Source: Verrucomicrobiota bacterium
GTDB taxonomy: Bacteria > Verrucomicrobiota > Verrucomicrobiia > Limisphaerales > CAIQOK01
NCBI GenBank assembly: GCA_046346715.1
Contig: JAXMHO010000007.1
Coordinates: 35,517-99,516, forward strand
Direction of reading: 5' to 3'
Length of the DNA stretch: 64,000 nt
Below the pieces are notes generated by a model that saw only the letters and a program-made list of their open reading frames with translations, was not told the DNA's origin and did no database searches. Positions 20,691-41,168 of this stretch are shown piece by piece; positions within the stretch are counted from its first letter, which is position 1, and each line of letters opens with the position of its first letter. The position numbers were made by a program, and so were the translations under genes.

Positions 20691-20697
20691 GGGAGAG

Positions 20698-20733: not shown

Positions 20734-21848
20734 ACCTTCGTCACCTTGTGTTCCACACACGTGCGATCAATCGCATCCCAATTCAGTTCTACGCCGATGC
20801 CGGGCTTTTGCGGAACGTGCGCCATGCCGAATTTGTCGATGGGATATTTGTCCTTCATCGGAAAACGGAACGGCTCTTCGGGAATCAGCAGCTCAAAGTA
20901 TTCGCAATTCTTGATGGCGCAGCTCACGTGCAGATTGGCGATATCCATGAAGCCCATCGTCGTGCAATGCACTTCGCAGCGCAGCCCGTGCGCCTCGGCG
21001 AGATGCGCGATCTTCAGCGTCCCGGTGACGCCGGCCTTCCACGAAACATCCGCGCGCACGATGTCCACGGCGTTGAATTGAATCGCCTGCGCCACGCCCC
21101 ACGGACCGCCACGCGTCGTCTCCGTGCCGGCAATGGGAATGTCCAACGCGGCGCAGAGCTTGGCGTATTTCGCGAGTTCGAAATCGCGGAACGGTTCTTC
21201 GAACCAATGGTAATTCAGTTTCTCCAGATCGCGCCCGACGCGAATCGCTTCTTCGAGCGAATAATCAGCCACCGGATCGGTCATCAAAACGTAATCGTCT
21301 CCAGCTGCCTCGCGCAACGCGCGGTGAATCTCGATATCTTTCCGCCACGGGCCAGGCGGATGCGCTTTGTAAGCCGGAAAACCGCGCTTCTTGTAAGCGC
21401 GCAATTGCTTCACATAATCCTCGACCTTTGGCATGAACAAACTGCTCGCATACGTCGGAAGACTCGTGCGACACGTGCCGATGAATTGATACAGCGGCAA
21501 CCCCGCGTCCTGCGCGGCGATGTCCCACAGCGCGACGTCCACCGGGCCGGGAAGATAGACCGGAAAGAACGTCAGATGCCGGTCAATCGTCCAAAGCTCG
21601 TGCCAGATCGCCTCGCGTTCCACCGGCGAACGGCCCATGACCACCGGCGCAATGTTCTCGTGCAGGTAAGCCTGCGTCACGATGCTGGAACGCGCCGCGA
21701 GCGCCGTGGCGTGGCCGGTGAGACCGGTGTCCGTGGTCAACTTCAACACGACCACGTCCCAATTCATCGGGCTGCGGCCCGTGCGCGAGGAATCGAACAA
21801 CGACTCTTGCCGCTGACAACGCCAGGTTTCAAACGAGGTGATTTTCAT
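20730..21848 (-). CDS. Enolase-superfamily (mandelate racemase/muconate lactonizing enzyme family) acid-sugar dehydratase
   Basis: The 372-aa protein begins MKITSFETW...VVLKLTTDTGLTGHA, a capping-domain start. Its length and pattern are typical of MR-subgroup dehydratases. Confidence 0.75.
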   Translation of the reverse strand: MKITSFETWRCQRQESLFDSSRTGRSPMNWDVVVLKLTTDTGLTGHATALAARSSIVTQAYLHENIAPVVMGRSPVEREAIWHELWTIDRHLTFFPVYLPGPVDVALWDIAAQDAGLPLYQFIGTCRTSLPTYASSLFMPKVEDYVKQLRAYKKRGFPAYKAHPPGPWRKDIEIHRALREAAGDDYVLMTDPVADYSLEEAIRVGRDLEKLNYHWFEEPFRDFELAKYAKLCAALDIPIAGTETTRGGPWGVAQAIQFNAVDIVRADVSWKAGVTGTLKIAHLAEAHGLRCEVHCTTMGFMDIANLHVSCAIKNCEYFELLIPEEPFRFPMKDKYPIDKFGMAHVPQKPGIGVELNWDAIDRTCVEHKVTKV

Positions 21849-22718: not shown

Positions 22719-23687
22719 TCACGGTTCGGGGGCATGGTCCAATAGTCCATGAAGAATTCCCGCCGGCACCGACAGCGCCGTGCCGTGCTTGTGGCCGGGC
22801 GGGAAGGAGACTTCGCGGGAGATGTCCGTGAAGGTTTTGAAGTCGCGGGTGCGCAGCGCGCCGTAGGTCTTGTCACGGTAGGCGTCGAAATAAATCAGCC
22901 AGTCGTCGCCAATCTTCAACGCGGTCGGCCCCTCGGTGAACTTTGGCGTCAACGGTTCGGTGAAATTGCCCCAAGGCCCGGCCGGATTGCCGCCGAACGC
23001 CACGCGGAGACCAAGCACCGGCCGGGAGTTGTCCTTGTGCAGCAAAACATAGCGGCCGGAATCCTTCACAATGAATGAATCAATAACGCTGAAACCGGGG
23101 TCGAGATACAACTGGGCCGGCGTGAACGTTTCAAAATCCCGGGTGGCGGTGAAGTAAAGCCGGTGATTGTTGTTCGTGGCTTCGAGCTTTTCGGGAAATC
23201 GTCCGGGAATCGTGGAGGCCCAGACGATGAGGAAGTGCCGCTGGCGTTCGTTGTAATACAGTTCGGGCGCCCAGACGTTCACAGTCGCGGGTTCGTTGGT
23301 CATCACGGGAATGAACCGCTGCGCCGACCAGTGGAGCAGGTCGGGCGAACTGGCATAGCCAAACCCCGGGTCGCCTTTCCAGGCAGTGGTCCAGACCAGA
23401 TGAAACGTTCCGTCCCGTCCGCGCAGCAGGCTGGGATCCCGCAGCAGCTTTCCCGCGCCCACGGTCGGGACGAGAAAACGTCCGGGCACCTGCTGCCAGT
23501 GATACCCGTCATGGCTGTAAAGAAACCGCAGACCGGGCGGCTGGTTGTCTTGAAAGGAGGTGAAGAGCCAGGCCGATTGCCCGGCGGAATGCCTGGACGG
23601 CGAAACAGTTCCACAACCGGAAAAGAGCGACGCCGCAATCAGCACCAGCCCAATCGCAAACCTAGCGATGATCACAGGGCGTTTCAC
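22719..23687 (-). CDS. Glycoside hydrolase family 43-like (five-bladed propeller), lipoprotein
   Basis: The GTG start at 23687 gives VKRPVIIARFAIGLVLIAASLFSGCG, a lipobox. LRDPSLLRGRDGTFHLVWT and VWAPELYY are GH43-type motifs. There is a GTGA overlap with GH31. Confidence 0.65.
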   Translation of the reverse strand: MKRPVIIARFAIGLVLIAASLFSGCGTVSPSRHSAGQSAWLFTSFQDNQPPGLRFLYSHDGYHWQQVPGRFLVPTVGAGKLLRDPSLLRGRDGTFHLVWTTAWKGDPGFGYASSPDLLHWSAQRFIPVMTNEPATVNVWAPELYYNERQRHFLIVWASTIPGRFPEKLEATNNNHRLYFTATRDFETFTPAQLYLDPGFSVIDSFIVKDSGRYVLLHKDNSRPVLGLRVAFGGNPAGPWGNFTEPLTPKFTEGPTALKIGDDWLIYFDAYRDKTYGALRTRDFKTFTDISREVSFPPGHKHGTALSVPAGILHGLLDHAPEP

Positions 23688-26179
23688 TTGAATTCCCCCG
23701 CCAGCACTTTGATTTCTTCCCCGATGTAGCGGACCACCCTCGTTGTGCTGCCTGCGGTGGAAACGAAAACGAGCCGGCACTCCCGCTCCGTCACCATGCC
23801 GGGGAACCGTCCCTGACGCGTTGCCATCGTGAGTTCGCCGCGCGTGTCGTCCCACGACAACTCCACGATGGCAGAGGCACCCTGCTCATAGTCGTAACCA
23901 TCGCCCGCATCCTCGTAGAGCGTGAAGGAGCCGTCGGCGCCACGGTAAATCCGAATCTCGTAAGGCGCTTTCGGATGTTCGTCCACGAACTGCATCGGCT
24001 CGGTCATCGGCAGGATGGAACCGGCGCGGACATACAACGGCATCGTTTCCAGCGGTGCGTCCGCAGAGATAGTTTGTCCGCCGGAGAAAACCTGCTCCGT
24101 CCAGAAATCAAACCACTTCGCGCCAGCGGGAAGATAAACTTCGCGACTCTTTTGCGCGTCGGCGATCGGCTGGGAGTTTTTTTCGTAATACATCGGCGTC
24201 GTCACCGGCGCGACGAGCAAGGCGGGGCCGAAGAGGAATTCATCCGTGAGCGAATGGGTTTTCACATCCGCCGGAAACTCCAGCGCCACCGCACGCAGCA
24301 TCGGGGTGCCGGATTGGGTCACTTTGGCCGCCAGCGAGTAGAGGTAAGGCAGCAACTGGTAACGCAGCCGGATGAACTTGGCGATGGTGTCGTAGAAAAT
24401 ATTGCCCGCGTCACCAAAGCGCCAGATCTCACGGGCGGCGTCGGTGCCGTGGGAACGGAACATCGGGAGAAAGGCCGCGTATTGCACCCAGCGTGTGTAA
24501 AGCTCCCAGAAGCCCAGATCGCGACAGCCGGTGTCTTTCGGGTCCGGCGCCAACGCGTTCATGTCGGTCAACCCACGACAGCCTTCGGCATAATCACCGC
24601 GCCAGAACCAGAGTTTCGGATCGTTGTTAATGAAAAAGCCGCCGATATCCACCGTCCAGTAAGGTTCGCCGGTGGCGCAAAAATTCACGCCCTCGGGAAT
24701 GCAATTCCGCAACGTCTGCCAGGTCGCGCAGATGTCGCCGTTCCAACAAATCGTCGCGTAACGATGCTGCCCCGCGTAACCGGAGCGGGTGAGATTCACC
24801 ACGCGTTTGGCAGCGGTGGCCTGGCGCTGGCCTTCGTAGATGCCCTGCGAATGCGGCAGCGAGTAGGTGTTGATCTGGCCGTGATCGAGATATTTCTTGG
24901 CGGCGCCGGTGTTCAGTTCCAGCCGCGGCTGCGGCTCGGGTTTGGTTTCGCCGGACCAATCGGCTTCGAACGGTTCGGTGCAATCGCACCACCAGCCATC
25001 GATGCCCTGGGCGAACAACCCCTGCTGCGCCTGCCGCCAATAAATCTCCCGCGCCTCGGCGGAGAACGCGTTGTAGGTGGACTGATTGCCGAGCATCAGG
25101 CCGCGGTCCTGCAATTCGCGCTGGTTGGGGCAATCGCCGGTCATAATCGGCCAGATGGACACCATCATTTTCGCGCCCAGCGCATGCAGCTCGTCGGTCA
25201 ACGCTTTCGGGTCGGGAAAACGCAGCGGATCAAAATTCTTCTGCCCCCACCCTGCTCCGTTTGGCCACGACTTCCAGTCGAGCACGATGAGGTCGAGCGG
25301 AATTTTCCGGCGACGATATTCGCGGACGACTTCCACCAGTTCCTTCGCGTTGACGTAACGCTCCTTCGACTGCGCGAACCCGAACGCCCACTTCGGCAGC
25401 ATGGGCGCCTTGCCGGTCAGCCGATGAAGATTTTCCGTGACCGCATCGAAGGATCCGCCGGCGATGAAATAAAAATCCAGTTCGTCCACCACGTCCGCCC
25501 ACCAACAGGCGCCGTCCGGGTCGTCGCGGAAGGTCATCAGCGAACCGCAATCCAGCAGCACGCCGTAGCCGCGCGTGGAAATGAAGTACGGCACGACGAT
25601 CTTCATGTTCTGCTGGTAGAGCAGCCGTTCCTTGCCGCGCAGATTGCCGTAGCCTTCCTCGTGCGAGCCGAGACCGAAGATGGCTTCGTCGGGCGCGAAC
25701 TGAAACTCCAGCCTGGCCTCGAACGCATCTCGATCAAAAACCGTCTCAAACTCCGTTGCCGCCGCCCGGGCGCCGTCGATGCTCTGGCCGGCAGCAACGG
25801 TTGCGCCCTGCTTGAAGACGTTGCGAAAGACCTTCTTGGGCGTCAGCGATTTGCCACCGCGCAATGGTTCGCGCAGTAAAGGTTTGCCGGTGGCATCGAA
25901 ATAGGCAATCGCACCGGTCGCCTTGTTCACGACCAGCTTGAGGGCAGAAGTGGAGAGTTCAAACACCTCCCCGGTTTCCTGAACTTTGAAGCCGGAGAAT
26001 TGAGACGTCGCCGTGACAATGAGGCTGGGCTTGTTCTGGAATGATTTTCCCTGCGTGACGGTGATGCGCGCGATGCCTTTCGTGACGAAGACAACTCGCA
26101 GACGCTTGTCGCCGGCGGCGAGAATCACCGCGCCCTGGTTGCTTTCGAGAGTGAACATGCGATCGGTCGAAAAATTCAA
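23684..26179 (-). CDS. Glycoside hydrolase family 31 (alpha-xylosidase/alpha-glucosidase type)
   Basis: GIDGWWCDCTEPFE is the GH31 catalytic-region motif, and WPNGAGWGQKNFDP is also present. The protein is about 830 aa. The start is TTG 26179 (TTGA overlap with the transporter) or ATG 26158. Confidence 0.85.
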   Translation of the reverse strand: MNFSTDRMFTLESNQGAVILAAGDKRLRVVFVTKGIARITVTQGKSFQNKPSLIVTATSQFSGFKVQETGEVFELSTSALKLVVNKATGAIAYFDATGKPLLREPLRGGKSLTPKKVFRNVFKQGATVAAGQSIDGARAAATEFETVFDRDAFEARLEFQFAPDEAIFGLGSHEEGYGNLRGKERLLYQQNMKIVVPYFISTRGYGVLLDCGSLMTFRDDPDGACWWADVVDELDFYFIAGGSFDAVTENLHRLTGKAPMLPKWAFGFAQSKERYVNAKELVEVVREYRRRKIPLDLIVLDWKSWPNGAGWGQKNFDPLRFPDPKALTDELHALGAKMMVSIWPIMTGDCPNQRELQDRGLMLGNQSTYNAFSAEAREIYWRQAQQGLFAQGIDGWWCDCTEPFEADWSGETKPEPQPRLELNTGAAKKYLDHGQINTYSLPHSQGIYEGQRQATAAKRVVNLTRSGYAGQHRYATICWNGDICATWQTLRNCIPEGVNFCATGEPYWTVDIGGFFINNDPKLWFWRGDYAEGCRGLTDMNALAPDPKDTGCRDLGFWELYTRWVQYAAFLPMFRSHGTDAAREIWRFGDAGNIFYDTIAKFIRLRYQLLPYLYSLAAKVTQSGTPMLRAVALEFPADVKTHSLTDEFLFGPALLVAPVTTPMYYEKNSQPIADAQKSREVYLPAGAKWFDFWTEQVFSGGQTISADAPLETMPLYVRAGSILPMTEPMQFVDEHPKAPYEIRIYRGADGSFTLYEDAGDGYDYEQGASAIVELSWDDTRGELTMATRQGRFPGMVTERECRLVFVSTAGSTTRVVRYIGEEIKVLAGEFK

Positions 26180-27549
26180 ACGGCCTTCGCGCGGCGGACG
26201 TCGAGCTCGGCGTGAATCTGCGGTTCCATGCGCTCAAAGCGGCGGTAGAAAAACACCGGCAGCAGGCTCAACGTCAGGCAGATGGCCGGCAGCCAGACGA
26301 TGCCGAACTCAATGGCCTTCAAGGCGGCGGGAGTTTGCTCGGTATTCGGCTGGTAACCGTTTGTGCCCATGATCCACAACGGAATCGCCCCGCCCAGTCC
26401 GGCCCCGGCCTTGAGGCAGAACGCAGCGCCGACGGCTGTCAACAATCCGGCCGCGCGAATGCCGGTTTTCCATTCGCCGTAATCAACGCTGTCCGAAAGA
26501 ATGGAAAACGGAATGGCCATCGCCATGCCACTGCCGAGAAAGCCGATGACCCAGCCGGTCATGATGAGGGGGATGGAGTGGTTGGATGCCATGCCAAAGT
26601 AGAGAACGAGTTGCCCGGCGATCATCATGGCCAGGCCCCAACCCCACGCGGCGGTCTTGGAGGTGATTTTGCAGAACCACGGCAGCAGGAACGCCGTGGC
26701 CAGCGAGACGAAATCCAGGCTGTAGGCAAGCGAGGTGAGGTCCTTGCGGTGCAGGTTGTATTCAAAGAAGTACGGCACCACCGAAACCCGCGCGATGAAT
26801 CCCACCCAGAAGAAAAAGCTGCTGAAGAAAATGATGAACCACGGCCAGTTGCCTTTCAGCGCGCCGAAGGTTCCGAGAATGGGCTGGATCTTCTTTTCCT
26901 GCGGCACGACTTCCTTGAGGTTCCGGAACGCGAGCAGGAACAGCAGAATTGAAAACACCGCGAACACCGGCAAGGTGAGCATGTAACCTTTCCGGTCATC
27001 GCCCTGACCGAAAAACGCCACGAGCTTGAGCGCCGTCAGGTTGACCAGCAGCACGCCGAGCTTGGAGCCGAACATGCGGAAGGTCATCAGCGTGATGCGC
27101 TCCTGCGGGCTGGTGGTCAGCGTCGAGAGAATGGAAGTCACCGGAGTGTTGATGCCGGTGTAGATGACACTGCATGCAATGTAGGTGAACGCCGCGTAGA
27201 TGACTTTGCCGTTGTAACTGAGGTTGGGCGTCATGAAGGTCAGCACGCCAAACAGGGCGAAAGGCAGGCACAGCCAGAGAAACCATGGACGGTATTTGCC
27301 GAGCCGGCTGTGGGTGCGGTCGAAGATGATTCCCCAGATCGGCGCGTCCACGGCGTCAATCCAGCGCGCCAGACCGAGAATCGTGCCGCAGGTCACCGCG
27401 CTCAGGCCGTAAACGTCGGTGAAAAATTTCCCCATGTAGCCGCCGATGATGAAGGTAAAAATCAGCTGTCCGGCGATGTCGGGGGCCGCATAGCTGAACC
27501 GGGTGATGTAGGAGGTCTTGTTCAAGGTTTGCGGAGATAGATACCGCAA
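26176..27549 (-). CDS. Glycoside-pentoside-hexuronide (GPH):cation symporter family transporter
   Basis: A 12-TM pattern is present, with FSYAAPDIAGQLIF...LARWIDAVDAPIWGIIFDRT typical of MelB/GPH carriers. The start is a TTG at 27549, so it is uncertain. Confidence 0.8.
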   Translation of the reverse strand: MRYLSPQTLNKTSYITRFSYAAPDIAGQLIFTFIIGGYMGKFFTDVYGLSAVTCGTILGLARWIDAVDAPIWGIIFDRTHSRLGKYRPWFLWLCLPFALFGVLTFMTPNLSYNGKVIYAAFTYIACSVIYTGINTPVTSILSTLTTSPQERITLMTFRMFGSKLGVLLVNLTALKLVAFFGQGDDRKGYMLTLPVFAVFSILLFLLAFRNLKEVVPQEKKIQPILGTFGALKGNWPWFIIFFSSFFFWVGFIARVSVVPYFFEYNLHRKDLTSLAYSLDFVSLATAFLLPWFCKITSKTAAWGWGLAMMIAGQLVLYFGMASNHSIPLIMTGWVIGFLGSGMAMAIPFSILSDSVDYGEWKTGIRAAGLLTAVGAAFCLKAGAGLGGAIPLWIMGTNGYQPNTEQTPAALKAIEFGIVWLPAICLTLSLLPVFFYRRFERMEPQIHAELDVRRAKAV

Positions 27550-27605: not shown

Positions 27606-28685
27606 TCAGTAATAGGGCTGCACCATCCTGGCCACCTGCTCGGCTTCGCGCTCGTCCTTGAACTGGATCAGCATGTAAACGCCCTTGGGTCCGAGGGTGT
27701 CGAGCAGCGGCTGGACTTCGTTCAATTCCACATTGACCACCTGCACGCTTTTGCCGGCGGCGAGAATGCGCTTGTACATCTCATGCCAGCGCTGGTGCCC
27801 GCCGGTTTCAATGCCGGCCTGCGGCGTCCATTCGATGGCGTCGAGCGGCTCGATCTCCAACAAGGCATCGAGATGCTGGACGGCCTGAGTGCCGTCGAGG
27901 TGGTAGAGCGAATAATCCAGCCAGGCGCATTGCTGGGTGAGCGAAGGGACAACGAACCGGCGATACATCTGGGGCGAAAACATGGCCGAGGAATCGCACT
28001 GCACCTTGGCTACTTTGCCCGGGCCCCAGAGATAAAAGGCGTCATAGACCGAACTGCCGTCCTCCAACTTGATGAGGTCGTAGATGCGCTGGTAGGCGTC
28101 GAACCAGACCCGGTTGATCTCGGCGATTTTTTCCTCGATCCACGCGGGACGTTCCAGCATGTCCATGCACAGCGTCTGCGCATCGCGCAGCGACGACAGC
28201 ACGTCCATGTTTTCAATGAGGTCCGGGCAGCCGACGAAATATTTTCCGCGGGACTTCTCCACGCAGGCGCGAATCACCGCCTCGGTGGTCTGCCACCATT
28301 TGCTGGCGGGATCAAACTTCAGCGGCGGCAGATTCTCGGGCTCCTCCTCGTTTTGAAAGACCGGATGAAACCAGACAGTCGTTTCGGCAAAGCCCGGTTC
28401 GGAACCCAGATACGCGGCCAGGATGCCCGGCCCCAAATCCGGCGACGCGGTCGGCAGCACGTCCAGGGGAAAAATCGAGCGCGCCAGCCGGTAATGGTTT
28501 TGCTCCGCGCGAAACCGGGGATTGGTCCAGCGCTCGGGCAGGGTCGCCGGCGTCGCCGGGGCGGCAGCGGGCTCGTGAATGCAGGCGGCGGTTTCCGGCG
28601 CACCCCACATGCCGACCAGCAGGCCGTCGCGGTTCCACCATTTGACGAATCGTTCCTTGGTCTGCGGCCAGTTTTCCTTCCACAT
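27606..28685 (-). CDS. Divergent uroporphyrinogen-decarboxylase (URO-D)-like TIM-barrel protein, putative substrate:corrinoid methyltransferase
   Basis: The 359-aa protein begins MWKENWPQTKERFVKWWNRDG. Its overall layout resembles URO-D/MtaA-like proteins, but no HxC zinc motif was seen. It lies immediately downstream of the corrinoid MT genes in the same operon. Confidence 0.5.
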   Translation of the reverse strand: MWKENWPQTKERFVKWWNRDGLLVGMWGAPETAACIHEPAAAPATPATLPERWTNPRFRAEQNHYRLARSIFPLDVLPTASPDLGPGILAAYLGSEPGFAETTVWFHPVFQNEEEPENLPPLKFDPASKWWQTTEAVIRACVEKSRGKYFVGCPDLIENMDVLSSLRDAQTLCMDMLERPAWIEEKIAEINRVWFDAYQRIYDLIKLEDGSSVYDAFYLWGPGKVAKVQCDSSAMFSPQMYRRFVVPSLTQQCAWLDYSLYHLDGTQAVQHLDALLEIEPLDAIEWTPQAGIETGGHQRWHEMYKRILAAGKSVQVVNVELNEVQPLLDTLGPKGVYMLIQFKDEREAEQVARMVQPYY

Positions 28686-28707: not shown

Positions 28708-29739
28708 CTAGTTTGCGTCCAAGAAAGCGGACACTTTGCGCTGAATCGTCCTTTCGCTGCCCGGCACGCTCAAGACGTCACACTCGCTGCCGAGCACGAA
28801 CGGATGCCCGGTGGCGCGCATCCGGCAGGACAACTCCGCCGCGAGTTCACGGACCTTTTCCAGACTCATCACGCGGTCGGAATAAAACTGCTTCGTCGGC
28901 AGGTTGCCGTAGAGCACGGTGGACCGAGGCAGCAGCGCCGCATCCTCCCATAATTTTCGCGAGCTTCCCAAACTCATCATTGCCGCGTCCAGCAGGGCAA
29001 ACCGGCTGACCATGCCATCCAGCAGTTCACCGCAGTTATGAAAAATCAGTTCCACGCCGTTTGCCGCCAGCTGGTCGCGGAGGGCAAGGTTGAACCTCAT
29101 CACATAACGCTCAAAAACATCATAGCTTTCGGCCAGCTGGTTCGGTGAGAAATAGACCTTGTTCGCCGCCGGCTCACAAAGAATGATCGCCTCTGCGCCG
29201 GCGTCCATCTGGGCTGCAAGATATTCCCGGATGGTTTGAAATGACAGCTCCAGAAGCCGTTCCACCAGGGCAACCTCATCATCTTCCGAGGCCGTCGATC
29301 CAGCCCCGGCCATGAAGACCGGCGTGATCGGGTCAGCAATCAATTGGGTCATCAAAGAAAACGGACCGATGGCGATGCCGACTGGCAGCAGATTCGTTTG
29401 CGTGGCGATGTAATTGATGCCGGCGCAGATCGCCATCATTCGTGGGGTGAGTTTGAAGGCGGGGCTCCGGCCCGGCACTTCAACAAAACGAAACGCCTCC
29501 ACCAAGGGCGGTGCCACTCCCTGAGCCAGCAGGAGCGCCTCTTTTTCCAGCTTCAGATCCATCAAGGGAAACGCCAGCGGCGTGCGAAACCGCCGAGCCG
29601 CCTCTTCCACCACCCGGCCCAGGCGCCGGCCATCAAGCACAACAGTCTCGTGGTCCGCGTGTTCGTGCAGCACCAGATGCGTGCCGATCGGCATTCGCAG
29701 CCCCGCCGAAGCAATATCGAGGAAACGCTGGCGGTTCAT
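28708..29739 (-). CDS. URO-D/MtaA-family methyltransferase (methylcobamide-type)
   Basis: MNRQRFLDIASAG...CEPAANKVYFSPNQ...IFHNCGELLDG carries a His-x-Cys zinc-ligand motif, and a later Cys occurs in GSECDV. The start was trimmed to ATG 29739, 1 nt after the corrinoid-protein stop. Confidence 0.7.
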   Translation of the reverse strand: MNRQRFLDIASAGLRMPIGTHLVLHEHADHETVVLDGRRLGRVVEEAARRFRTPLAFPLMDLKLEKEALLLAQGVAPPLVEAFRFVEVPGRSPAFKLTPRMMAICAGINYIATQTNLLPVGIAIGPFSLMTQLIADPITPVFMAGAGSTASEDDEVALVERLLELSFQTIREYLAAQMDAGAEAIILCEPAANKVYFSPNQLAESYDVFERYVMRFNLALRDQLAANGVELIFHNCGELLDGMVSRFALLDAAMMSLGSSRKLWEDAALLPRSTVLYGNLPTKQFYSDRVMSLEKVRELAAELSCRMRATGHPFVLGSECDVLSVPGSERTIQRKVSAFLDAN

Positions 29740-29740
29740 G

Positions 29741-30370
29741 TCAGCTCCGCAACATCGCCAGCGCCGTATCCACGGCCGTGCCCGCGTCGGGCGCGTAACC
29801 GTCCGCCTCAATTTCTTTCGCGAAGTCCGGCGTGATGGGCGCGCCGCCGATCACAATCTTAACCGGCAGCCCCAGGGCACGCACCTGCCTGACCGTTTGG
29901 CGCATGGCGGGCATGGTGGTGGTGAGGAGCGCGGACAATCCAAGCAAACTCGGCCGGTGCTGCTTCACGGCCTCGACAAATTTTGCCGGCGGCACGTTCA
30001 CGCCCAGATCAACGACCTCGATGTTTGCGCCCTTCCACATCATCGCCACGAGATTTTTTCCGATGTCGTGCAGGTCGCCTTCAACCGTGCCGATGACGGC
30101 GGTGTATTCGGGCTTCACCCCGGCGGCAACGAGCATGGGCTCGAGAATTTTCAACGCCTCCTTCATGGCGCGGGCGGCAATGAGCATTTCCGGCACGAAG
30201 ATTTCATTCCGCTTGAAGCGCTCGCCAACGACCATCATGCCAGGCACGAGCCGCTTCTCAACGATCTCCGCAGCCTTCTCTCCCGCTGCAAGACATTGCT
30301 GGACCAGCTCGGGGACCTCTTTGCGCTTCCCGGCAATGATGACCTGCGTCAGCGGATGATCGACGTTCAT
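29741..30370 (-). CDS. Corrinoid (cobalamin)-binding protein, MtaC/MtbC-like
   Basis: An N-terminal helical B12-binding_2-like part is followed by a Rossmann part with TVEGDLHDIGKN (the DxHxxG motif), then SALLTTT and GGAPIT motifs. The start was trimmed to ATG 30370. Confidence 0.85.
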   Translation of the reverse strand: MNVDHPLTQVIIAGKRKEVPELVQQCLAAGEKAAEIVEKRLVPGMMVVGERFKRNEIFVPEMLIAARAMKEALKILEPMLVAAGVKPEYTAVIGTVEGDLHDIGKNLVAMMWKGANIEVVDLGVNVPPAKFVEAVKQHRPSLLGLSALLTTTMPAMRQTVRQVRALGLPVKIVIGGAPITPDFAKEIEADGYAPDAGTAVDTALAMLRS

Positions 30371-30481
30371 GAGGCAACAGGCTAGGCAGGGCCGCGGCAG
30401 ACGTCTTGTAATCCGGGACGATTCTTTGGTGATCCGGTGCTCTGCCATTGAAAATCATCCGGACTTCCTTTTAATGCCGGC

Positions 30482-31381
30482 ATGCAACGCATTCCTCTGC
30501 TCGCGCAACTGGCCACCACCCCCCTGCTTGCCGATGGCGCGATGGGCACCCAATTGATGGCCCGCGGACTCGGGAGCGGAGAATGCGGGATGCTGTGGAA
30601 CGTCAACCGCCGCCCGGATGTTGCCGCCGTTCACGAAGCCTACCATCGCGCGGGCAGCCACCTGATCACGACCAATTCCTTCGGAGGTTCGCGGTATGTG
30701 CTCGAACGGCATGGCTTGACGGCGCGGGGTGTCGAACTGAACCGCGCCGCCGCCGCCATCGCCCGAAAGGTGCTGGGCGAAACCGGCTGGGTTTTGGGAG
30801 ACGTCGGCCCGGTCGGGGATTTTCTGGAACCGGTCGGAGATGTTTCGGCAGAGGATTTGCGGGCAGCTTTCCGCGACCAGATTGCCGCCCTCATCGAAGG
30901 CGGTGCGGACGCCATCCTGGTCGAAACCATGAGCGACCCGGCGGAGGCGGTGGTCGGCGTCGAAGCCGCCCGGGAATGCAGCGCAAAAATCCCGGTGGTG
31001 GTCACCTATGCCTTTCAGAAAACTGCGGCGAACGAATTTCGAACCATGATGGGAACCACCGTAGCCGAAGCCGTGGAGAGGTCCGTCAAGGCCGGCGCGG
31101 ACATTATCGGCACGAACTGCGGCACGGATCTGGGCTTGGAGGATTACGTGGTTCTCGCCAGACAGCTTACGATTGCCGCCGGAAGGACGCCCGTGATTGT
31201 GCAACCCAACGGCGGAACGCCACGCATTGAAAACGGACGGACGGTTTATGATGCCTCGCCGGAGCAAATGGCCGCGCTGGCATCCAAGCTGATCTCCGCC
31301 GGCGCCAGTATCGTCGGCGGCTGCTGCGGCACAACCCCGGAACACCTGGCCGCGATGAGCCGGGCTGTGAAACAAGGCTGA
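30482..31381 (+). CDS. Homocysteine S-methyltransferase-domain protein (stand-alone MetH Hcy-domain-like)
   Basis: ADGAMGTQL, ITTNSFG, GTNCG and GGCCGTTPEH (zinc-binding Cys triad positions) match the Hcy-binding domain. The protein is 299 aa. It is divergent from the corrinoid protein gene. Confidence 0.8.
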   Translation: MQRIPLLAQLATTPLLADGAMGTQLMARGLGSGECGMLWNVNRRPDVAAVHEAYHRAGSHLITTNSFGGSRYVLERHGLTARGVELNRAAAAIARKVLGETGWVLGDVGPVGDFLEPVGDVSAEDLRAAFRDQIAALIEGGADAILVETMSDPAEAVVGVEAARECSAKIPVVVTYAFQKTAANEFRTMMGTTVAEAVERSVKAGADIIGTNCGTDLGLEDYVVLARQLTIAAGRTPVIVQPNGGTPRIENGRTVYDASPEQMAALASKLISAGASIVGGCCGTTPEHLAAMSRAVKQG

Positions 31382-31414
31382 AACGGAGTTCCAAAGTTTG
31401 CGGACCGGACAATC

Positions 31415-32155
31415 CTAAGCCTTGCCCACAAGACCGCCGGCCTTGGCGCGGGACTCTTCCCGGAACAGCTTGGGGGTGCGCCCTTTCACCTCCTGAAAGA
31501 CGCGCGTGAAGTAGCTCTGATCGCAGAAGCCGCAGGTGTCCGCAATCTGCGCCAGGGATTTTTCGGTGCCCAGCAGAAGTTCGCAGGCAAGGTCAACGCG
31601 GCATTGGCGGAGCAATTCGGTGAATGAACGACCCGTGCGCTCCTTCAGCAGCCGTGAGAAATGGCTCGGGGAAATGCCCGCGTGCCGCGCCGTCTCATCG
31701 CGGGAAATGTCGCGGTGCAGATTCTCACGCATGAACCCGAGCGCCCGGCCGATGAGCAGCGGCGGCGTGAAATCCTCCTGCCGTTCAATGGTTGAGAACA
31801 CATGCTCCAGCGTTTTGCGCAGCCATGCCGCAAGGTATTCGTCGTCATTGATGCCCGCCAGCTCGGTCAGGAAGCGGAAGTTCATCCCCAGCACTTCCGA
31901 CTGCACGGCGCCCGCCTCCACCGCCGCGCGGGAAATCATCACGACCAGTTCCAGCAGCAGCCCCTTCAGCAGTTCGCTGCGCTCCTCGCCCGCGCTGTAG
32001 ATGTGGACGAGCACATGGTTGATGATGCGGCGCGCCTCGCCGCGGTCGCCCCGGCGGATGGCGGCGAGCAGTTGCAGCTCCTGCAGCAGATACAGCTCGC
32101 GGATGCGGTCGTAAGGCCGGTGTTCGAGCAGCGGGATGGCGGGGAAATCGTTCAT
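31415..32155 (-). CDS. AraC-family transcriptional regulator
   Basis: The C-terminal HTH is ARHAGISPSHFSRLLKERTGRSFTELLRQCRV...IADTCGFCDQSYFTRVFQ. Confidence 0.8.
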   Translation of the reverse strand: MNDFPAIPLLEHRPYDRIRELYLLQELQLLAAIRRGDRGEARRIINHVLVHIYSAGEERSELLKGLLLELVVMISRAAVEAGAVQSEVLGMNFRFLTELAGINDDEYLAAWLRKTLEHVFSTIERQEDFTPPLLIGRALGFMRENLHRDISRDETARHAGISPSHFSRLLKERTGRSFTELLRQCRVDLACELLLGTEKSLAQIADTCGFCDQSYFTRVFQEVKGRTPKLFREESRAKAGGLVGKA

Positions 32156-32165
32156 GCGGCGTCAA

Positions 32166-33803
32166 TCACGGCAGCAGCAAATGCTCGACGTAGCGGTCTT
32201 CGAAACCGTCCGTCAGGTTCAATTCCACCACCCTGACCCGGGCGCGGAGATTTTCCATCTCCGCCAAGAGGGTGCGATCCAGCAGCGCCAGCAGCGCGCC
32301 CGCCAGCGACGTGTTGCCGACGACCTTCACCTGCCGCACGTCAAAACCCGGCAACAGTCCAATGGCGATGGCGTGCGCAACGTCGAGGTGCATCCCAAAA
32401 CCGCCCGCGAGATAAACCGTCCCCACGTCCGCCGCGCGGATGCCGGCGGTTTCCAACAGGACTTCGATGCCCGCGCCAATCGCCGCCTTGGCCTGCAGCA
32501 GCAACGCCACGTCCACTTCGCTGATGCGCAGATCGTCCGGGCCGTTCCGCGCGGCGAGACGAACCGCACGTTGGTCGTCATTCGACCAACGATGCGTCTC
32601 CGGCAGCTCCTCCCAGCGCCTCAGCTCAAACCGTCCCGTGGTCCCCAGCAAGCCGATTTGGCGCGCCGTCGCCAAAAAATCCAGATAGGCCGATCCGCAA
32701 ATGCCCTCCGCCCGAGCCAACGACGTTGCGCCGATGACTTCAACCTTCAGCAAAAAGGGATTGAGCGCCAGGCTCAAGTCGCTCACCGCCCCGGTCCGGG
32801 CCCGGGTGCCGCACGACAGCCCGCAGCCTTCAAACGCCGGCCCGGCCGCCGTGGCGCAGCCAAAAAACCTTCCGTCCGCCTGCAAAACGATTTCGCCATT
32901 CGTTCCGATGTCCACCAGCAGCGCGGGTTTTTCGTCGTAGCACATGCCGGTGGCCAGCATGCCCGCGGTGATGTCCGCGCCCACATAGGCCGCGATGCCG
33001 GGCAGGAGCTGGATCGGAGTTTCGACGGCCAAACCTTCGGCGACCAAACCAACTTCCCGGGCTGCCAAGGTTCGGCCGGCGATGAACCGCGGCGTAAACG
33101 GAGCCACGCCCAGCGGTGTCGGGTCTTCTCCGGCAAGGAGGTGCAGCATGGTCGTGTTCGCCGCGATGGTTCCGCCCGCGATTCGTTCAGCGGGGCGGCC
33201 GGCCTGCTCCAACGCCCGCTTCAATAACGGCTGGATGGTTTCCATCACGACAGCACGTTGCATGGCGGCAAGTTGCTCCGGCTTTTGGGCGGCTTCGATG
33301 CGCGTGACGACATTGTCGCCAAAACGGATTTGCTCGTTGAATCCTCCGGCCCGCGAAAGCACGTCGCCGGTCTTCAGATCCACCAACAGCACCACCACGG
33401 TGGTCGTGCCGACATCCACGGCAAAGGCGGTGTCGCGGCCGGGCGTAAAGGGAAACAGCGGCTGATGCGCATACGGCACGGCGATTTCAAAGGTCTCGCT
33501 GACTTGGGGGCGATGCTCCAGACGCGAGCGGTCGGGCAAATGAAACGCCAGATCGCCGGCCAGCCGGGCGCGGCAGGCTTTCACCACCGCCGGAGCCGTG
33601 ACGCGGGTTCCATCCACTGACACGCTGCCGGAGATCAAATCCATTTCACACCCACGGCACCGGCCGCGTTGGCCGCAGCGGGTGTTCAAGGGCAGACCTT
33701 GCGCCGCGAGAATGTCGGCGAGGGAACGCGTCTCGTCCGAAGCAACCAACCGGCGCGTCTCGCCGGAATCCAATCGAACCTCGATGTTCCCGCCGCAGCT
33801 CAT
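32166..33803 (-). CDS. Corrinoid reductive activase (RACo-like: N-terminal [2Fe-2S] ferredoxin + ASKHA ATPase/DUF4445)
   Basis: An N-terminal Cys cluster is present (NTRCGQRGRCRGCE). The body has actin-fold phosphate motifs (AVDVGTTTVV, LLVDIGTNGEI, GPAFEG). Confidence 0.75.
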   Translation of the reverse strand: MSCGGNIEVRLDSGETRRLVASDETRSLADILAAQGLPLNTRCGQRGRCRGCEMDLISGSVSVDGTRVTAPAVVKACRARLAGDLAFHLPDRSRLEHRPQVSETFEIAVPYAHQPLFPFTPGRDTAFAVDVGTTTVVVLLVDLKTGDVLSRAGGFNEQIRFGDNVVTRIEAAQKPEQLAAMQRAVVMETIQPLLKRALEQAGRPAERIAGGTIAANTTMLHLLAGEDPTPLGVAPFTPRFIAGRTLAAREVGLVAEGLAVETPIQLLPGIAAYVGADITAGMLATGMCYDEKPALLVDIGTNGEIVLQADGRFFGCATAAGPAFEGCGLSCGTRARTGAVSDLSLALNPFLLKVEVIGATSLARAEGICGSAYLDFLATARQIGLLGTTGRFELRRWEELPETHRWSNDDQRAVRLAARNGPDDLRISEVDVALLLQAKAAIGAGIEVLLETAGIRAADVGTVYLAGGFGMHLDVAHAIAIGLLPGFDVRQVKVVGNTSLAGALLALLDRTLLAEMENLRARVRVVELNLTDGFEDRYVEHLLLP

Positions 33804-34552
33804 GGGTCCACCCGCATGATGGATTCATCCGGAGCATGGCCAAGACACCGGCCAGGCGGAATAATTTGAAAGCGTTTCTCGTCCCAGCGGCCCCAGAGCA
33901 AATCACGCAGCAGCGTGGCATCGCCGCGGATTCGTTCAAACTTCCAGCCCAGCCATTCGGCGCAGCGCCTGGCATAGGCCGCTTCACTCTCAGCGTCGTC
34001 CGTGCCGAGATCGAGGTAAGTGGCAGTGTCGTGCAACGCCCATTGTTCGCGCTCGGTTTGAATGATGAAGTCCACGTCCTCGGGATCAAACCTCCCCGAA
34101 AGTTCGCGCCGCAGGGCTTCCAGCTTTTCCGGTCCAGGCACGCGGCGGTTCCGGTTCCAGCCCGGAGTGTAGTAATAGCAGGTGGGACAGCGGCCTTGAT
34201 GTGCGGCGTAGGTTTCCTTGCTCCCCATGAAAACGGTGATGCAGTCATGCGCCCGCGGAATGACGACTGGATGCCGCAACGGTCGCAGGCCGGCAGTACC
34301 GCGACCGCACAAGCCATAGGCCATCACCACGGCTTCGATGTCCGCCCGCGCATCGATGGCCTCCAAGTGCTCCTGCAGGATGCCGCGCATCTGGTCGGGA
34401 TGGTCATGCAACCCCATCTCGAACCAACGAATCTCGGCAAGGTGCGGAGCATCTGGAGCCAGCAGCTTGATCTCGCGCTCAAAGACCGAACACGCCAGCA
34501 GCGCCATGCGGGGCGGCAAGGCGGCGGTCGGATGGTTCGCAGACAGTTTCAC
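33800..34552 (-). CDS. DUF1638 domain protein
   Basis: LLACSVFEREI...WFEMGLHDHP...YGLCG matches my recollection of DUF1638, a family habitually linked to corrinoid methyltransferase genes. There is an ATGA overlap with the activase gene. Confidence 0.6.
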   Translation of the reverse strand: MKLSANHPTAALPPRMALLACSVFEREIKLLAPDAPHLAEIRWFEMGLHDHPDQMRGILQEHLEAIDARADIEAVVMAYGLCGRGTAGLRPLRHPVVIPRAHDCITVFMGSKETYAAHQGRCPTCYYYTPGWNRNRRVPGPEKLEALRRELSGRFDPEDVDFIIQTEREQWALHDTATYLDLGTDDAESEAAYARRCAEWLGWKFERIRGDATLLRDLLWGRWDEKRFQIIPPGRCLGHAPDESIMRVDP

Positions 34553-34616: not shown

Positions 34617-35702
34617 TCAGGTCGGCAGATTTTCCAGGCCATGACGGGCAAGCACGTTCTTGATTTTCACCGGATGACCCGACGCGCACGTTTCTTCCAT
34701 GGCCACCAGCAAGGCGATGGTCACGACGCCTTCCAAGGCATCCGGACGGGGCGTTTCCCCGGCGACCAGGCAGCGGGCAAAGTATTCGATGTAGTTCTGA
34801 TATTCGCCGGCATGGTGCGTTCGACCGCCGAAGCGGAAGTAATAATCTTCCTCCTCTTCAAAGCGTTCGATGACGGAATGACCGCCGGAGCGCCATGAGT
34901 AACGCAGCTCGGGGTAGTCCGCCTGGCTCGAACCGTTCGCGCAGCGGAGGATGCAGGTCATTCCGCTGTCGCGTTGCGACGGGACGATGGGGCAGGAGTA
35001 GCAGCCGCTGACGCGGGCGATTTTGCCGGAGCTGGATTTCAAAATGAAATGGAAGGTGTCGTCATTCTTCAGACCGCCCGCGCGGCCGTTTTCACTGAGC
35101 GTGGAATAGCCCATGACTTCCTCAACGTCGGGCAGATACCACCGCAGCAGGTCGGCCGGGTGGCTCAGGCCGCCGAAGAGCCAGCGGAAGGATTTCTCCT
35201 TGGCCCATGGCTTTTCCAGAAACCAGCGGTGGTCGGCGTGATAGGCGGCTTCGAGGGTGTTCAACTCGCCGAGCGCGCCGGCCAGGAAATGTTCGCGCTG
35301 GCGTCGAAACGGCTCGAAGAAGCGCGTGCTCTGGCCCACAAACACCCGCCGGCCGCTCTGCTGCTGCGCGTCCAAAACCGCCCGGGCCTGGGACAGATCA
35401 TTGAGGAACGGCTTGGTGCAGATGACGTGCTTCCCGGCGCGCAAGGCCGCGATGGCATGGCCGGCATGGAGATGGTCGGGCGTGTAGATGCCGACGGCGT
35501 CCACGGCGGGATTGGCCAGCAGCTTTTCAAACGAGGTGTTGAATTGTTCGGGGGGCAGTGAAAACTCGCGGCAACGCTCCGCGCCGAGCTGCGGGTTGAT
35601 GTCGCACAGCTGCACCACCTCCCACAGCTCGCTGTTCACGCCGGCGGAAATGATGCTGCGCCCTTCACCGAGACCAAGTACGCCCAGACCGAATTTCTTC
35701 AT
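34617..35702 (-). CDS. Gfo/Idh/MocA family oxidoreductase
   Basis: MKKFGLGVLGLGEGRS is the Rossmann start, followed by VDAVGIYTPDHLHAGHAIAALRAGKHVICTKP, the typical family core. The start was trimmed to ATG 35702. Confidence 0.8.
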   Translation of the reverse strand: MKKFGLGVLGLGEGRSIISAGVNSELWEVVQLCDINPQLGAERCREFSLPPEQFNTSFEKLLANPAVDAVGIYTPDHLHAGHAIAALRAGKHVICTKPFLNDLSQARAVLDAQQQSGRRVFVGQSTRFFEPFRRQREHFLAGALGELNTLEAAYHADHRWFLEKPWAKEKSFRWLFGGLSHPADLLRWYLPDVEEVMGYSTLSENGRAGGLKNDDTFHFILKSSSGKIARVSGCYSCPIVPSQRDSGMTCILRCANGSSQADYPELRYSWRSGGHSVIERFEEEEDYYFRFGGRTHHAGEYQNYIEYFARCLVAGETPRPDALEGVVTIALLVAMEETCASGHPVKIKNVLARHGLENLPT

Positions 35703-35774
35703 GCAATTATTTGGGTAAAAAGCAAAAGAGCGCAGGAGGGCTTTGCCTTCCTGCGCTCGTGGAAGCACGAAAGC

Positions 35775-36596
35775 CTAGATGGACTCCTTCTTCTTGTCCG
35801 GGAATGGGCCCCAGTTCGCCTCGGAGTCTTCGGCGTGATTGTAAACGTTCTTCCCATCCTTCAAGAACGGCGTCGCCATCGCCCACGGTTTGCCGTCGGG
35901 GCGGTTGATGGGTGCGCCGCTGTATTGGGGAAGGTAAATGCGGCGCATGCGGTTCGTCTTGTTCGCGCCGCTGCGATGGAACAGAAAGCTGTCGAACGCC
36001 ACGATGCTGCCGGCGGGAACGATCAACGGATCACCGGGATCGCTGCCGGTGTAGCCGATCAGGTCGTTGGTGCCCTCCTCCTTGAAATGGTCGATCAGCT
36101 TGCCGCGCGTGCCGCCACGGGAATGCGGGAGGATGTAAACGGTGCCGTTTTCCTCATTCACCGCGTCAAGCGTGCACCAGCAGGTGACGTAAGGCTTGTG
36201 GTTGGTGGTGGGGTCATACCACTTCACGTAGCCGCTGTCCTGGTGCCAGGCGAACTTCATGCCCTGCTCGGCGCCCTTGACGACCCATTGTTCGTGGAAC
36301 AACTGGGCGTTGGGTCCGACCGTCGCCTCGGCAACTTTCGCCATGAGGTCGCTGAAGATGAACTGGTAAAGGCGATTGCTCAGACGGTAGCGGTTGTTGA
36401 TGAAGTAGCGGTTGCCGCGATGGGTGATGCCCACGCTCTTGACCCCCTTGGAGTCCATCAGCGCGTCCATGTAGCCGATATAGTAGGAGCACTCCTCGCG
36501 GAGCATTTCGAGCATGTCGGGCGGGATGACCGCCGGCAAAATCATGTAGCCTTCCTTCTGGTAAAGGTCCCGTTGTTCTTTGGAAATGGTGATCAT
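35775..36596 (-). CDS. Phytanoyl-CoA dioxygenase (PhyH) family Fe(II)/2-oxoglutarate-dependent oxygenase
   Basis: LYQKEGYMILPAVIP...WHQDSGY (the HxD facial-triad region)...FHRSGAN has a PhyH-like layout. Confidence 0.7.
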   Translation of the reverse strand: MITISKEQRDLYQKEGYMILPAVIPPDMLEMLREECSYYIGYMDALMDSKGVKSVGITHRGNRYFINNRYRLSNRLYQFIFSDLMAKVAEATVGPNAQLFHEQWVVKGAEQGMKFAWHQDSGYVKWYDPTTNHKPYVTCWCTLDAVNEENGTVYILPHSRGGTRGKLIDHFKEEGTNDLIGYTGSDPGDPLIVPAGSIVAFDSFLFHRSGANKTNRMRRIYLPQYSGAPINRPDGKPWAMATPFLKDGKNVYNHAEDSEANWGPFPDKKKESI

Positions 36597-39916: not shown

Positions 39917-40918
39917 TCATTTCTTTAGCAGGCTCAACGCCGTCTCGCTCAACCCTTCCATGCTGATGCCGTAGTGCCGGAAGATGTCCGCCTGCGCGCC
40001 GGGAACGGTTTCCTCATCAGGTATGCCCACGATGCGGAAGGGTTTCCACACGCCCGCTTGCAAGAGTGTAGAGGCTACCGCTTCACCGAGTCCGCCGTTG
40101 CACCATGTGTTCTTCCACCGTGACGACGGCTTTGCATTCGCGACCGGCTTTGAGGATGGCTTCCGTGTCGAGTGGCTTCACGGTGTGGACGGATAACACG
40201 CGTGCTTGGATACCGTTCCCCGGCAAGCTGTGCGGCGGCGAGGACAGCATGAACCACCGTTTCGCCGTTGGCGAGGAACGCCACATCGTTGCCTTCGCGC
40301 AGCGTGATGGCTTTGCCGACTTCAAACTTCGTTTCCGGTTTAGCAGACCATACATCGCGGCTTTGCCGAAGCGGACAAAGACCGGCTTTGTCGCCTTGGC
40401 GGCGGCGAGGATGACTTGGCGGGATTCAAAGTTGTCGGCGGGGACGATGATGGTGAGGTTGTTGATCGCGCGCAGGACGGCGAGGTCGTGCAGCGAATGA
40501 TGCGTCGTGCCGAGTGCGCCGTAGCTCGTGCCGGAGCTGATGCCGACCAGCACGGCGGGAACGTCCGAGTAACAGACATCATTTTGATCTGCTCCAGCGA
40601 CCGCGCCGTGAGGAAGCAGCTCGGCGAAACACCGAACGCCTTCTTGCCGCAGGCCGCGAGACCGGCAGTGATGCCGACGAGGTTTTGCTCCGCGATGCCG
40701 ACTTCCACAATCTGCTTGGGCAGCGCCTTGCCGAACGGCGCGAGCTTGCCTGAGCCACGCGAGTCGCTGGTGACGGCGATGATGTTCGGGTTTGCCTTCG
40801 CGAGTTCTTCCAGCGTGGCAGCAAACTCTTCGAGATTGGCGCGGCCCATTTTCAGGCCGAGCTTTTCCGCCGTGGCTTTTGCCGCAGGCGTGAACATTGA
40901 GGGTGCGGGTGCGCTCAT
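39917..40918 (-). pseudogene. Transketolase C-terminal (pyrimidine-binding) subunit, multiply frameshifted
   Basis: MSAPAPSMF...IVEVGIAEQNLVGITAGLA...SLEQIK comes from frame 1. (N)DVCYSDVPAVLVGISSGTSYGALGTTHHSLHD...FGKAAMYG comes from frame 2, and AKPETKFEVGKAITLREGNDVAFLANGETVVHAVLAAAQLAG from frame 3. NGIQARVLSVHTVKPLD...VTVEEH returns to frame 2, and NGGLGEAVAS...LSLLKK* to frame 3. The first shift is at the T-run 40582-40585. The others lie near 40345, 40215 and 40100. Confidence 0.8.
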
Positions 40919-40954
40919 GGGTGGGAAAATATCAATGATTTGAAAAAGCTGGGA

Positions 40955-41008
40955 AGCCCCTCTCCCTGTCCCTCTCCCCGCGCTTCGCTGCGGGGCGAGG
41001 GAATCGGA
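40955..41008. repeat. REP-like hairpin repeat type A, copy 1
   Basis: The sequence is agcccctctccctgtccctctccccgcgcttcgctgcggggcgagggaatcgga. It contains an imperfect 12-bp palindrome, ccctctccccgc/gcggggcgaggg. Confidence 0.8.
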
Positions 41009-41153: not shown

Positions 41154-41168
41154 CTTGAAAATTGCGGC

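Follow-up and report, generated by a model that had tools for sequence, protein, structure and literature searches.

The locus considered here raises the question of where a homocysteine methyltransferase module obtains its methyl groups when it is not fused to the pterin-binding, cobalamin-binding and activation modules of cobalamin-dependent methionine synthase (MetH). The gene for this stand-alone module (hereafter the Hcy module) lies in a 64-kb stretch of DNA from a Verrucomicrobiota bacterium of soil or freshwater, comprising about half of one contig, which was the extent of the analysis and is referred to here as the window. It sits next to the gene for a corrinoid protein, amid genes for putative methyltransferases and for sugar uptake and metabolism (Table 1). 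A sequence-only reading of this DNA had proposed that methyl groups from methylated glycans might be channeled by way of the corrinoid protein directly to homocysteine, in a wiring that dispenses with tetrahydrofolate (THF). The MetH-like character of the module and its conserved linkage to corrinoid, RACo and DUF1638 genes speak for such direct channeling, but a wiring without THF is not justified by the evidence. With moderate confidence, we favor the view that the Hcy module is part of a modular, split cobalamin-dependent system in which it acts as an assimilatory sink, converting scavenged methyl groups into methionine and S-adenosylmethionine (SAM) and bypassing methyl-THF.

The predicted product of the gene shows 100% identity to its NCBI entry, from a Verrucomicrobiota metagenome-assembled genome with locus tags U1F65_, and the open reading frame (ORF) has the GC distribution over codon positions (0.68/0.51/0.73) of high-GC coding sequence, in a window of about 60% GC. 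PF02574 aligns over its full length (positions 1-283 of 283) with residues 15-296 of the protein, at an E-value of 1.3e-64 and 219.2 bits against a cut-off of 22, a match that by its profile score is far above chance level. The zinc-ligand positions that the sequence-only reading had recognized in the motifs GTNCG and GGCCGT are borne out as C213 and as C281 and C282, respectively, and none of them varies across an alignment of E. coli MetH, E. coli MmuM, the Bmt proteins of S. meliloti and Paracoccus and eight stand-alone homologues. E148 and T149 are likewise invariant; 90% or more of the aligned sequences share D18 and G19, the exception being locus L001, in which the gene call begins 20 residues later. 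D18 (DGA/DGG motif) and E148 (ET motif) align with residues that we take, from the BHMT and MetH structures, to grip the amino-acid part of homocysteine. The protein is 33-36% identical to the N-terminal barrel of MetH (T. maritima 1q7m/3bof, T. thermophilus 8ssc and E. coli), shares its zinc cysteines and its DGA and ET motifs, and would be expected to catalyze the same half-reaction.

Database and fold comparisons lead to the same relatives. The best match among PDB sequences is the Hcy barrel of T. maritima MetH (4.9e-44), with the Thermus entries at 1e-43 to 1e-39, MmuM at 5e-17 and BHMT at 1.8e-14. The AlphaFold2 (AF2) model (pLDDT 88, pTM 0.89) is a (beta/alpha)8 barrel and can be superposed on Hcy domains of known structure, with a TM-score of 0.90 and a root-mean-square deviation (rmsd) of 2.2 Å for T. 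thermophilus MetH 8ssc and TM-scores of 0.88-0.89 for T. maritima MetH, as compared to 0.78 for MmuM and 0.80-0.82 for BHMT (rmsd about 3.1 Å for each). Both by sequence and by fold the protein is clearly nearer the MetH homocysteine barrel than MmuM or BHMT, and there can be very little doubt that it belongs among the zinc-dependent homocysteine methyltransferases of MetH type. The idea that this PF02574 protein might itself methylate THF was rejected because its zinc-thiolate site is intact; we know of no member of the family that binds pterins.

All curated NCBIfam equivalog cut-offs are missed by the protein. It scores 253 bits with PRK08645 (YitJ-type N-terminal half; cut-off 453), 227.5 with PRK07534 (bacterial betaine-homocysteine methyltransferase, Bmt; cut-off 338), 146 with TIGR02082 (MetH; cut-off 1010.85) and 107 with PRK09485 (MmuM; cut-off 215), which accounts for its generic NCBI name, homocysteine S-methyltransferase family protein. 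Its best 120 database homologues are all single-domain proteins of 279-347 amino acids (aa). In a neighbor-joining (NJ) tree the Verrucomicrobiota sequences form a clade next to a large one that is made up of other phyla's stand-alone modules, with alphaproteobacterial Bmt/MtgE and then E. coli MetH further out and MmuM as the outgroup.

These assignments bear on the possibility that the enzyme works independently of the corrinoid protein, taking its methyl group directly from S-methylmethionine (SMM), SAM, dimethylsulfoniopropionate (DMSP) or betaine, in which case the adjacency of the two genes would reflect shared regulation only. PF02574 does contain such enzymes: MmuM/YagD and BHMT share with our protein the fold and the zinc-thiolate chemistry on homocysteine, yet use small-molecule donors directly. 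The bacterial betaine-homocysteine model gives the protein a substantial score, and purified Phaeobacter Bmt has been reported to form methionine with DMSP or betaine as the donor and in the absence of both cobalamin and THF (PMC12366255). Nonetheless, the protein falls short of both the PRK07534 and the PRK09485 cut-offs, is 31% identical to E. coli MmuM, and resembles MetH more closely. Among the approximately 50 coding-looking ORFs of the window scanned with Pfam, moreover, there is no transporter or catabolic gene for SMM or betaine, and no match to an amino-acid permease family that might correspond to the SMM permease accompanying MmuM. The linkage to corrinoid, RACo and DUF1638 genes is also kept in both divergent and co-directional layouts, which is hard to explain by regulation alone. 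A corrinoid-independent enzyme seems therefore quite improbable.

The corrinoid protein encoded on the other side of the spacer matches B12-binding_2 (PF02607, 3e-21) and B12-binding (PF02310, 1e-27), is recognized by TIGR02370 as a methyltransferase cognate corrinoid protein (1.6e-52), and finds in the PDB 1y80 (1.8e-53), the O-demethylase corrinoid protein 4jgi (5e-33) and the B12 domain of MetH (2e-29). The divergence of the two genes over 111 nt, already described from the sequence alone, holds because the corrinoid gene starts at the ATG at 30370, which is favored over an upstream in-frame ATG at 30448 by homologues of 209-211 aa; position 30371, from which the sequence-only reading counted the Hcy region, is the first base of the spacer and lies upstream of the Hcy gene itself. 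The corrinoid gene is the first of a minus-strand operon that continues with UROD1 and UROD2, two candidate methyltransferase genes related to the uroporphyrinogen decarboxylase (URO-D) family, and with genes for a GPH symporter and a GH31 hydrolase. All four parts of a corrinoid hub (Hcy module, corrinoid protein, RACo/RamA-type activase and DUF1638 protein) are encoded within positions 29741-34552.

The association of these genes extends well beyond the window. Co-occurrence in related genomes, for which the sequence-only reading had wanted a check, is seen in the majority of cases: of 22 distinct Verrucomicrobiota loci, encoding Hcy proteins of 54-76% identity, 16 have a corrinoid-protein gene at most 7 kb away, and most of these 16 loci additionally carry RACo, DUF1638 and the same AraC-family regulator. 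RACo and DUF1638 are also present in L009, which is outside the 16. The divergent arrangement of Hcy and corrinoid genes is found in the window and in L001, L006, L008 and L010, and L014, L015, L017 and L019 have all genes on a single strand in the order corrinoid-(MtaB)-UROD1-Hcy-DUF1638-RACo. That the linkage is kept despite this varied arrangement argues for a functional relationship, and against chance or mere shared regulation. On the strength of this linkage, it is quite probable that the Hcy module is supplied by the adjoining corrinoid protein.

The surroundings of the linked genes vary, from the UROD1/UROD2-GPH-GH31 set of the window and L001 to MtaB (methanol:corrinoid methyltransferase) genes, further URO-D genes, sugar kinases, mutarotases (rhaM, RbsD/FucU) and sugar transporters. 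A scan of 140 neighboring ORFs recovered 16 URO-D, 9 MtaB, 3 PfkB and 3 RbsD_FucU members, plus sugar transporters. Examples of MtaB-family genes are found in L005 (6965-8344) and also in L006, L007, L010-L013, L015, L017, L019 and L024. The cluster is, in other words, a constant core that accepts, carries and reactivates, combined with interchangeable loading methyltransferases amid sugar genes. Of the 14 Verrucomicrobiota loci that carry the cluster, 9 have MtaB-family genes next to those for the corrinoid protein and the Hcy module, which suggests that bacteria that are neither methanogenic nor acetogenic can draw on methanol or some other methoxy donor for the synthesis of methionine. Of 61 more distant loci from other phyla, 22 also have a corrinoid gene no further than 10 kb from the Hcy gene, in most cases immediately next to it, and the recurrence of this two-gene pair in Bacteroidales, Ignavibacteria, Lentisphaerae and other groups indicates that the principle may be widespread.

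The loading step would fall to the two URO-D-like proteins. UROD1 matches PF01208 (1.6e-13), has weak similarity to MtbA/MT2 (2e-7) and carries the HxC...C motifs FHNCGE and SECD; its homologues (58-78% identity) adjoin corrinoid genes in L001, L008, L014, L015, L017, L019, L024 and L092, and it is probably the methyltransferase I (MT I) that loads the methyl group onto the corrinoid protein. UROD2, which shows 100% identity to NCBI MFO1487911.1, has no match in Pfam, NCBIfam or PDB sequence searches, and UROD1 too finds nothing significant among PDB sequences. The AF2 model of UROD2 is of moderate confidence (pLDDT 73.8), and its best fold matches are URO-D 6w2o (7e-6) and the MtaA-like methyltransferase 4ay8 of M. 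mazei (2e-5). It has over 100 homologues at 69-87% identity, all the named ones labeled hypothetical, and is accompanied by Gfo/Idh/MocA, MFS_2 symporter and GH31 genes in the window, in L001 and in Nibricoccus L092, the symporter being kept with UROD2 and GH31 in the latter two. The modeled fold would make UROD2 a second MT I candidate, and a candidate for a new family of sugar-methyl-ether:corrinoid methyltransferases.

In the scheme that we propose, the URO-D-like methyltransferases of this locus, or MtaB-like enzymes in its relatives, would move a donor methyl group onto the Co(I) form of the corrinoid protein. Judging from the gene context, the donor would most likely be a methoxy sugar imported by the GPH symporter and, in relatives, maybe methanol or another methoxy compound. 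D18, E148 and the zinc site would bind L-homocysteine and activate its thiol, and the resulting thiolate would attack methyl-Co(III) to give methionine and Co(I). For this second step, the chemistry is the established one of the Hcy module in MetH. RACo, probably together with the DUF1638 protein, would return corrinoid oxidized to Co(II) to its reduced state. The pairing with this corrinoid protein, the methyl donors and the direction of flux are the elements of the scheme that we infer. Operation of the system in reverse, with methionine as the donor, was rejected on energetic grounds; methylation of homocysteine by methyl-Co(III) is strongly exergonic.

A donor of pectic origin is hinted at by Nibricoccus L092, a 5.09-Mb contig in which RACo, corrinoid and UROD1 genes are contiguous (18799-21080), uninterrupted by the Hcy and AraC genes that separate RACo from corrinoid in the window. 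At a distance of 3 kb, a UROD2-Gfo-MFS-GH31 unit adjoins BT_1020-like, GH2 and SASA genes. Its BT_1020-like neighbor would presumably fit the degradation of rhamnogalacturonan II (RG-II), as in the Bacteroides RG-II system, and is a lead, not a test. RG-II carries 2-O-methyl-xylose and 2-O-methyl-fucose.

Whether the methyl groups can reach homocysteine without passing through THF is a separate matter. The statement of the sequence-only reading that the window is devoid of a pterin-binding gene is correct on three counts: PF00809 is absent from the Pfam scans over the whole 64 kb; the four E. coli MetH modules, searched by tblastn against all six frames, recover the Hcy gene (4e-33), the corrinoid gene (2e-29) and no other, with E-values no better than 1.9 for the pterin module and 0.77 for the activation module; and a profile built from six pterin-binding sequences has zero matches. 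The same reading held that a pterin-binding methyltransferase beside orthologous loci would overturn it, and no such gene occurs within 10 kb on either side of the Hcy gene in the Verrucomicrobiota loci, although one is found near the Hcy gene in five loci of other phyla. The step from this absence to a wiring free of THF is, however, not borne out, given the unlinked pterin gene of Phaeobacter, the stand-alone pterin modules of the Planctomycetes-Verrucomicrobia-Chlamydiae (PVC) bacteria and the PurU genes considered below.

These observations lend some weight to a different arrangement, in which the Hcy module, corrinoid protein, RACo and DUF1638 would together be a housekeeping split MetH with a shared hub: methyl-THF would reach it through an unlinked pterin module, and the methyl groups that the URO-D-like enzymes load onto the same corrinoid protein would leave mainly by this module to THF and be oxidized, so that homocysteine would not be a meaningful sink. 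This architecture, in which the pterin gene is far from a local cluster of Hcy, B12 and DUF1638 genes, has been demonstrated genetically in Phaeobacter and Ruegeria. In Phaeobacter, the Hcy (PGA1_c13370), B12 (c13350) and DUF1638 (c13340) genes are clustered, and the pterin gene (PGA1_c16040) and a RamA-like gene are found elsewhere in the genome (PMC5764234, PMC12478193, PMC12366255). Stand-alone PF00809 proteins of 337-340 aa form an abundant, large family in PVC bacteria, and in L090 and L066 such a gene directly follows an Hcy module of 43-45% identity (43% in L090, where the pair adjoins amino-acid biosynthesis genes). Three points stand against it. Pterin genes occur within 10 kb in none of the Verrucomicrobiota loci, as opposed to five from other phyla; the acceptor-type enzyme that is retained in the variable demethylase clusters is the Hcy gene and not a pterin gene; and the corrinoid protein is of the methyltransferase-cognate type and not derived from MetH. 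We consider this arrangement a possibility to be taken seriously, if an unlikely one.

Several further observations weigh against the assimilatory sink that we favor. Five Verrucomicrobiota loci (two of them on contigs below 5.3 kb) have no corrinoid, RACo or DUF1638 gene nearby, and in the three examined (L016, L021 and L023) the Hcy gene is found among other, partly housekeeping genes, a setting that is also in line with the split MetH and suggests that the ancestral role of the family was ordinary methionine synthesis. Conversely, no Hcy gene is found in the 21 kb examined of L092; the cluster is modular in its make-up and can occur without the Hcy gene. In the characterized hub the Hcy module receives its methyl groups from methyl-THF by way of the pterin module and is not where substrate methyl groups end up, and Phaeobacter mtgE is down-regulated when methyl donors are supplied. 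Homocysteine, moreover, forms a small pool that is regenerated only through the SAM cycle, and could thus absorb assimilatory but not catabolic fluxes; this limit would suit rare methyl-ether sugars or an optional use of methanol, and not a bulk substrate. Finally, a PurU-like gene (ACT and Formyl_trans_N domains) precedes the Hcy gene in the same direction, at a distance of 12-14 nt, in L005 (9153-9989, plus strand) and in the P0068 locus. A formyl-THF deformylase in this position points to folate one-carbon traffic, and may be read either as part of a folate oxidation route for the methyl groups, as the split MetH would have it, or as suiting a source of methionine that bypasses folate, given that methionine activates the E. 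coli enzyme, which serves to rebalance the folate pools. The stricter proposal of a folate-independent synthase fed by pectin methoxy sugars (e.g. the 2-O-methyl sugars of RG-II) or methanol, with homocysteine as the sole sink and no pterin methyltransferase in the genome, appears doubtful.

Comparison with characterized systems helps to delimit what is new in the assimilatory sink proposed here. The closest parallel is the MtgBCDE hub of marine Alphaproteobacteria, published in 2025, in which betaine methyl groups pass through MtgB and MtgC to THF via MtgD, and MtgE draws methyl groups for methionine. A corrinoid hub linking substrate demethylation to a stand-alone Hcy module is hence already known, and the wiring from substrate methyl to homocysteine is less of a novelty than the sequence-only reading had assumed. 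Our locus has in common with this hub and the split MetH a PF02574 protein that consists of one domain (about 300 aa) and is accompanied by a corrinoid protein encoded separately, by an activase of the RamA/RACo type and by DUF1638; the Hcy, B12 and DUF1638 genes are clustered, and the corrinoid protein would, here too, be common to substrate-specific loading methyltransferases. DUF1638 has been shown by genetics to be required for split-MetH function in Phaeobacter (PMC5764234). Unlike the hub, the loading enzymes are here URO-D- or MtaB-like and encoded amid sugar genes, instead of betaine methyltransferases of the MttB family, and counterparts of the MtgD pterin module and of MetF2 are seen neither in the window nor in orthologous loci. 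With 37-38% identity to S. meliloti and Paracoccus Bmt, a score below the PRK07534 cut-off and a separate NJ clade, the Hcy protein does not qualify as an orthologue of MtgE; judged from its sequence, it would work like MtgE without being orthologous to it. In S. meliloti (L087, 14589-16834, on pSymB), bmt lies some 6-8 kb from trimethylamine-methyltransferase-family, ferredoxin and cobalamin-binding genes, a setting that agrees with the 2025 proposal assigning the rhizobial Bhmt to a corrinoid hub, as its Hcy module.

The three- or four-component O-demethylases of acetogens, Desulfitobacterium and methanogens, as well as MtgABC and MtaABC, share with our locus a URO-D- or MtaB-type loader, a small corrinoid protein, a RACo/RamA activase and the principle of two half-reactions that alternate between Co(I) and methyl-Co(III). 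Their second methyltransferase, however, is either pterin-binding (THF or tetrahydromethanopterin) or MtaA-like (coenzyme M), whereas the Hcy module is the only acceptor-type enzyme here; MT I candidates, corrinoid protein and RACo are all present, but the pterin-binding methyltransferase II encoded alongside in acetogen-type systems is not. The setting, a glycan-degrading Verrucomicrobium with the gene of an O2-dependent PhyH enzyme nearby, also differs from that of acetogens and methanogens. That such an enzyme is encoded next to a system based on oxygen-sensitive Co(I) implies that the latter operates under aerobic or microaerobic conditions, like the roseobacter hub. Unlike in MetH, the module would have as its partner a free corrinoid protein, of the kind known from methanogens and acetogens, and reactivation would rely on an ATP-dependent RACo instead of a SAM-dependent activation domain. 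Core-MetE and MesA-MesB likewise make methionine from homocysteine and a methyl-corrinoid while bypassing methyl-THF, but consist of the C-terminal barrel of MetE, a fold family unrelated to PF02574 (PMC7857596, PMC7005905). Our literature search returned nothing relevant on a corrinoid sugar demethylase or an MtaB system in Verrucomicrobia or on a link between RG-II and cobalamin, and no paper describing an Hcy-module cluster with URO-D/MtaB loaders in Verrucomicrobiota glycan loci. What is new here is the occurrence of URO-D- and MtaB-like loaders in Verrucomicrobiota glycan-utilization loci, in clusters of which the Hcy module is the only acceptor-type enzyme.

If the pairing of Hcy module and corrinoid protein is correct, the abundant Verrucomicrobia that degrade glycans could build methionine and SAM directly from the methyl ethers of plant sugars or from methanol, saving reduced folate one-carbon units. 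It would also provide a corrinoid-based route for the removal of sugar O-methyl groups, which has so far been known only from cytochrome P450 (PMC6292453), and would extend the logic of the MtgBCDE hub beyond marine Alphaproteobacteria and betaine, to another phylum and class of substrates. The degradation of polysaccharides would, in turn, impose an additional demand for B12.

Table 1. The Hcy gene and neighboring features, with coordinates in the window
Feature	Coordinates	Strand	Description
GH31 hydrolase	23684-26179	-	PF01055 5e-87, plus GH31 accessory domains
GPH/MFS_2 sugar symporter	26176-27549	-	PF13347 4e-75; corrinoid operon
UROD2 (U1F65_05485)	27606-28685	-	359 aa; divergent URO-D/MtaA-like barrel (predicted fold)
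UROD1, URO-D-family methyltransferase candidate	28708-29739	-	343 aa from the ATG one base past the corrinoid stop
Corrinoid (cobalamin-binding) carrier protein	29741-30370	-	209 aa; cap and Rossmann domains
Divergent spacer, corrinoid operon/Hcy gene	30371-30481		111 nt
Hcy module gene	30482-31381	+	299 aa; NCBI MFO1487914.1; PF02574
AraC-family regulator	31415-32155	-	HTH_18 8.5e-24; convergent with the Hcy gene
RACo/RamA-type ATP-dependent reductive activase	32166-33803	-	RACo_C_ter 1e-66; Raco_middle 4e-46
DUF1638 protein	33800-34552	-	PF07796 2e-36
Gfo/Idh/MocA oxidoreductase and PhyH-family dioxygenase	34617-36596	-	beyond DUF1638

Among the remaining features of the cluster, the AraC-family regulator belongs to the conserved core, with copies of 74-91% identity in the same place in L001, L005, L006, L008 and L010-L013. 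The N-terminal 2Fe-2S domain of the activase is recognized by Fer2 (1.5e-5), and an AcsV-type model matches at 9e-99. The Gfo/Idh/MocA and PhyH genes are conserved beside the cluster in L001 (82% and 92% identity), and another PhyH gene is present in L005. Rfam finds no riboswitch in the window at gathering score, nor in positions 30250-30600 at E<=5 (where a single snoRNA match is due to chance), and control of the Hcy gene by a SAM or B12 riboswitch was rejected on this result. A promoter and terminator scan of the divergent spacer was uninformative, with no convincing sigma-70 site inside it.

The window further encodes GH78, GH127, GH31 and GH43-like hydrolases, together with a BNR protein and DUF3826 and DUF6298 proteins. 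A PdxA-like dehydrogenase, two DUF1537-type (SBD_N/NBD_C) kinases and a RuBisCO-like protein are encoded at 51-2539 and 13375-16581, a set that we take to be typical of the catabolism of apiose or four-carbon acid sugars and that would fit an RG-II/pectin region. A split transketolase occupies 40083-42709 (minus strand), its pyrimidine-binding half being broken across the overlapping ORFs 40340-41221 and 40083-40553, which suggests a frameshift or an assembly error; a DUF559 endonuclease-like ORF (41169-41960) sits between the two transketolase halves. Two ankyrin-repeat proteins of 244 and 433 aa are encoded at 43029-45452 (minus strand), amid genes of sugar metabolism.

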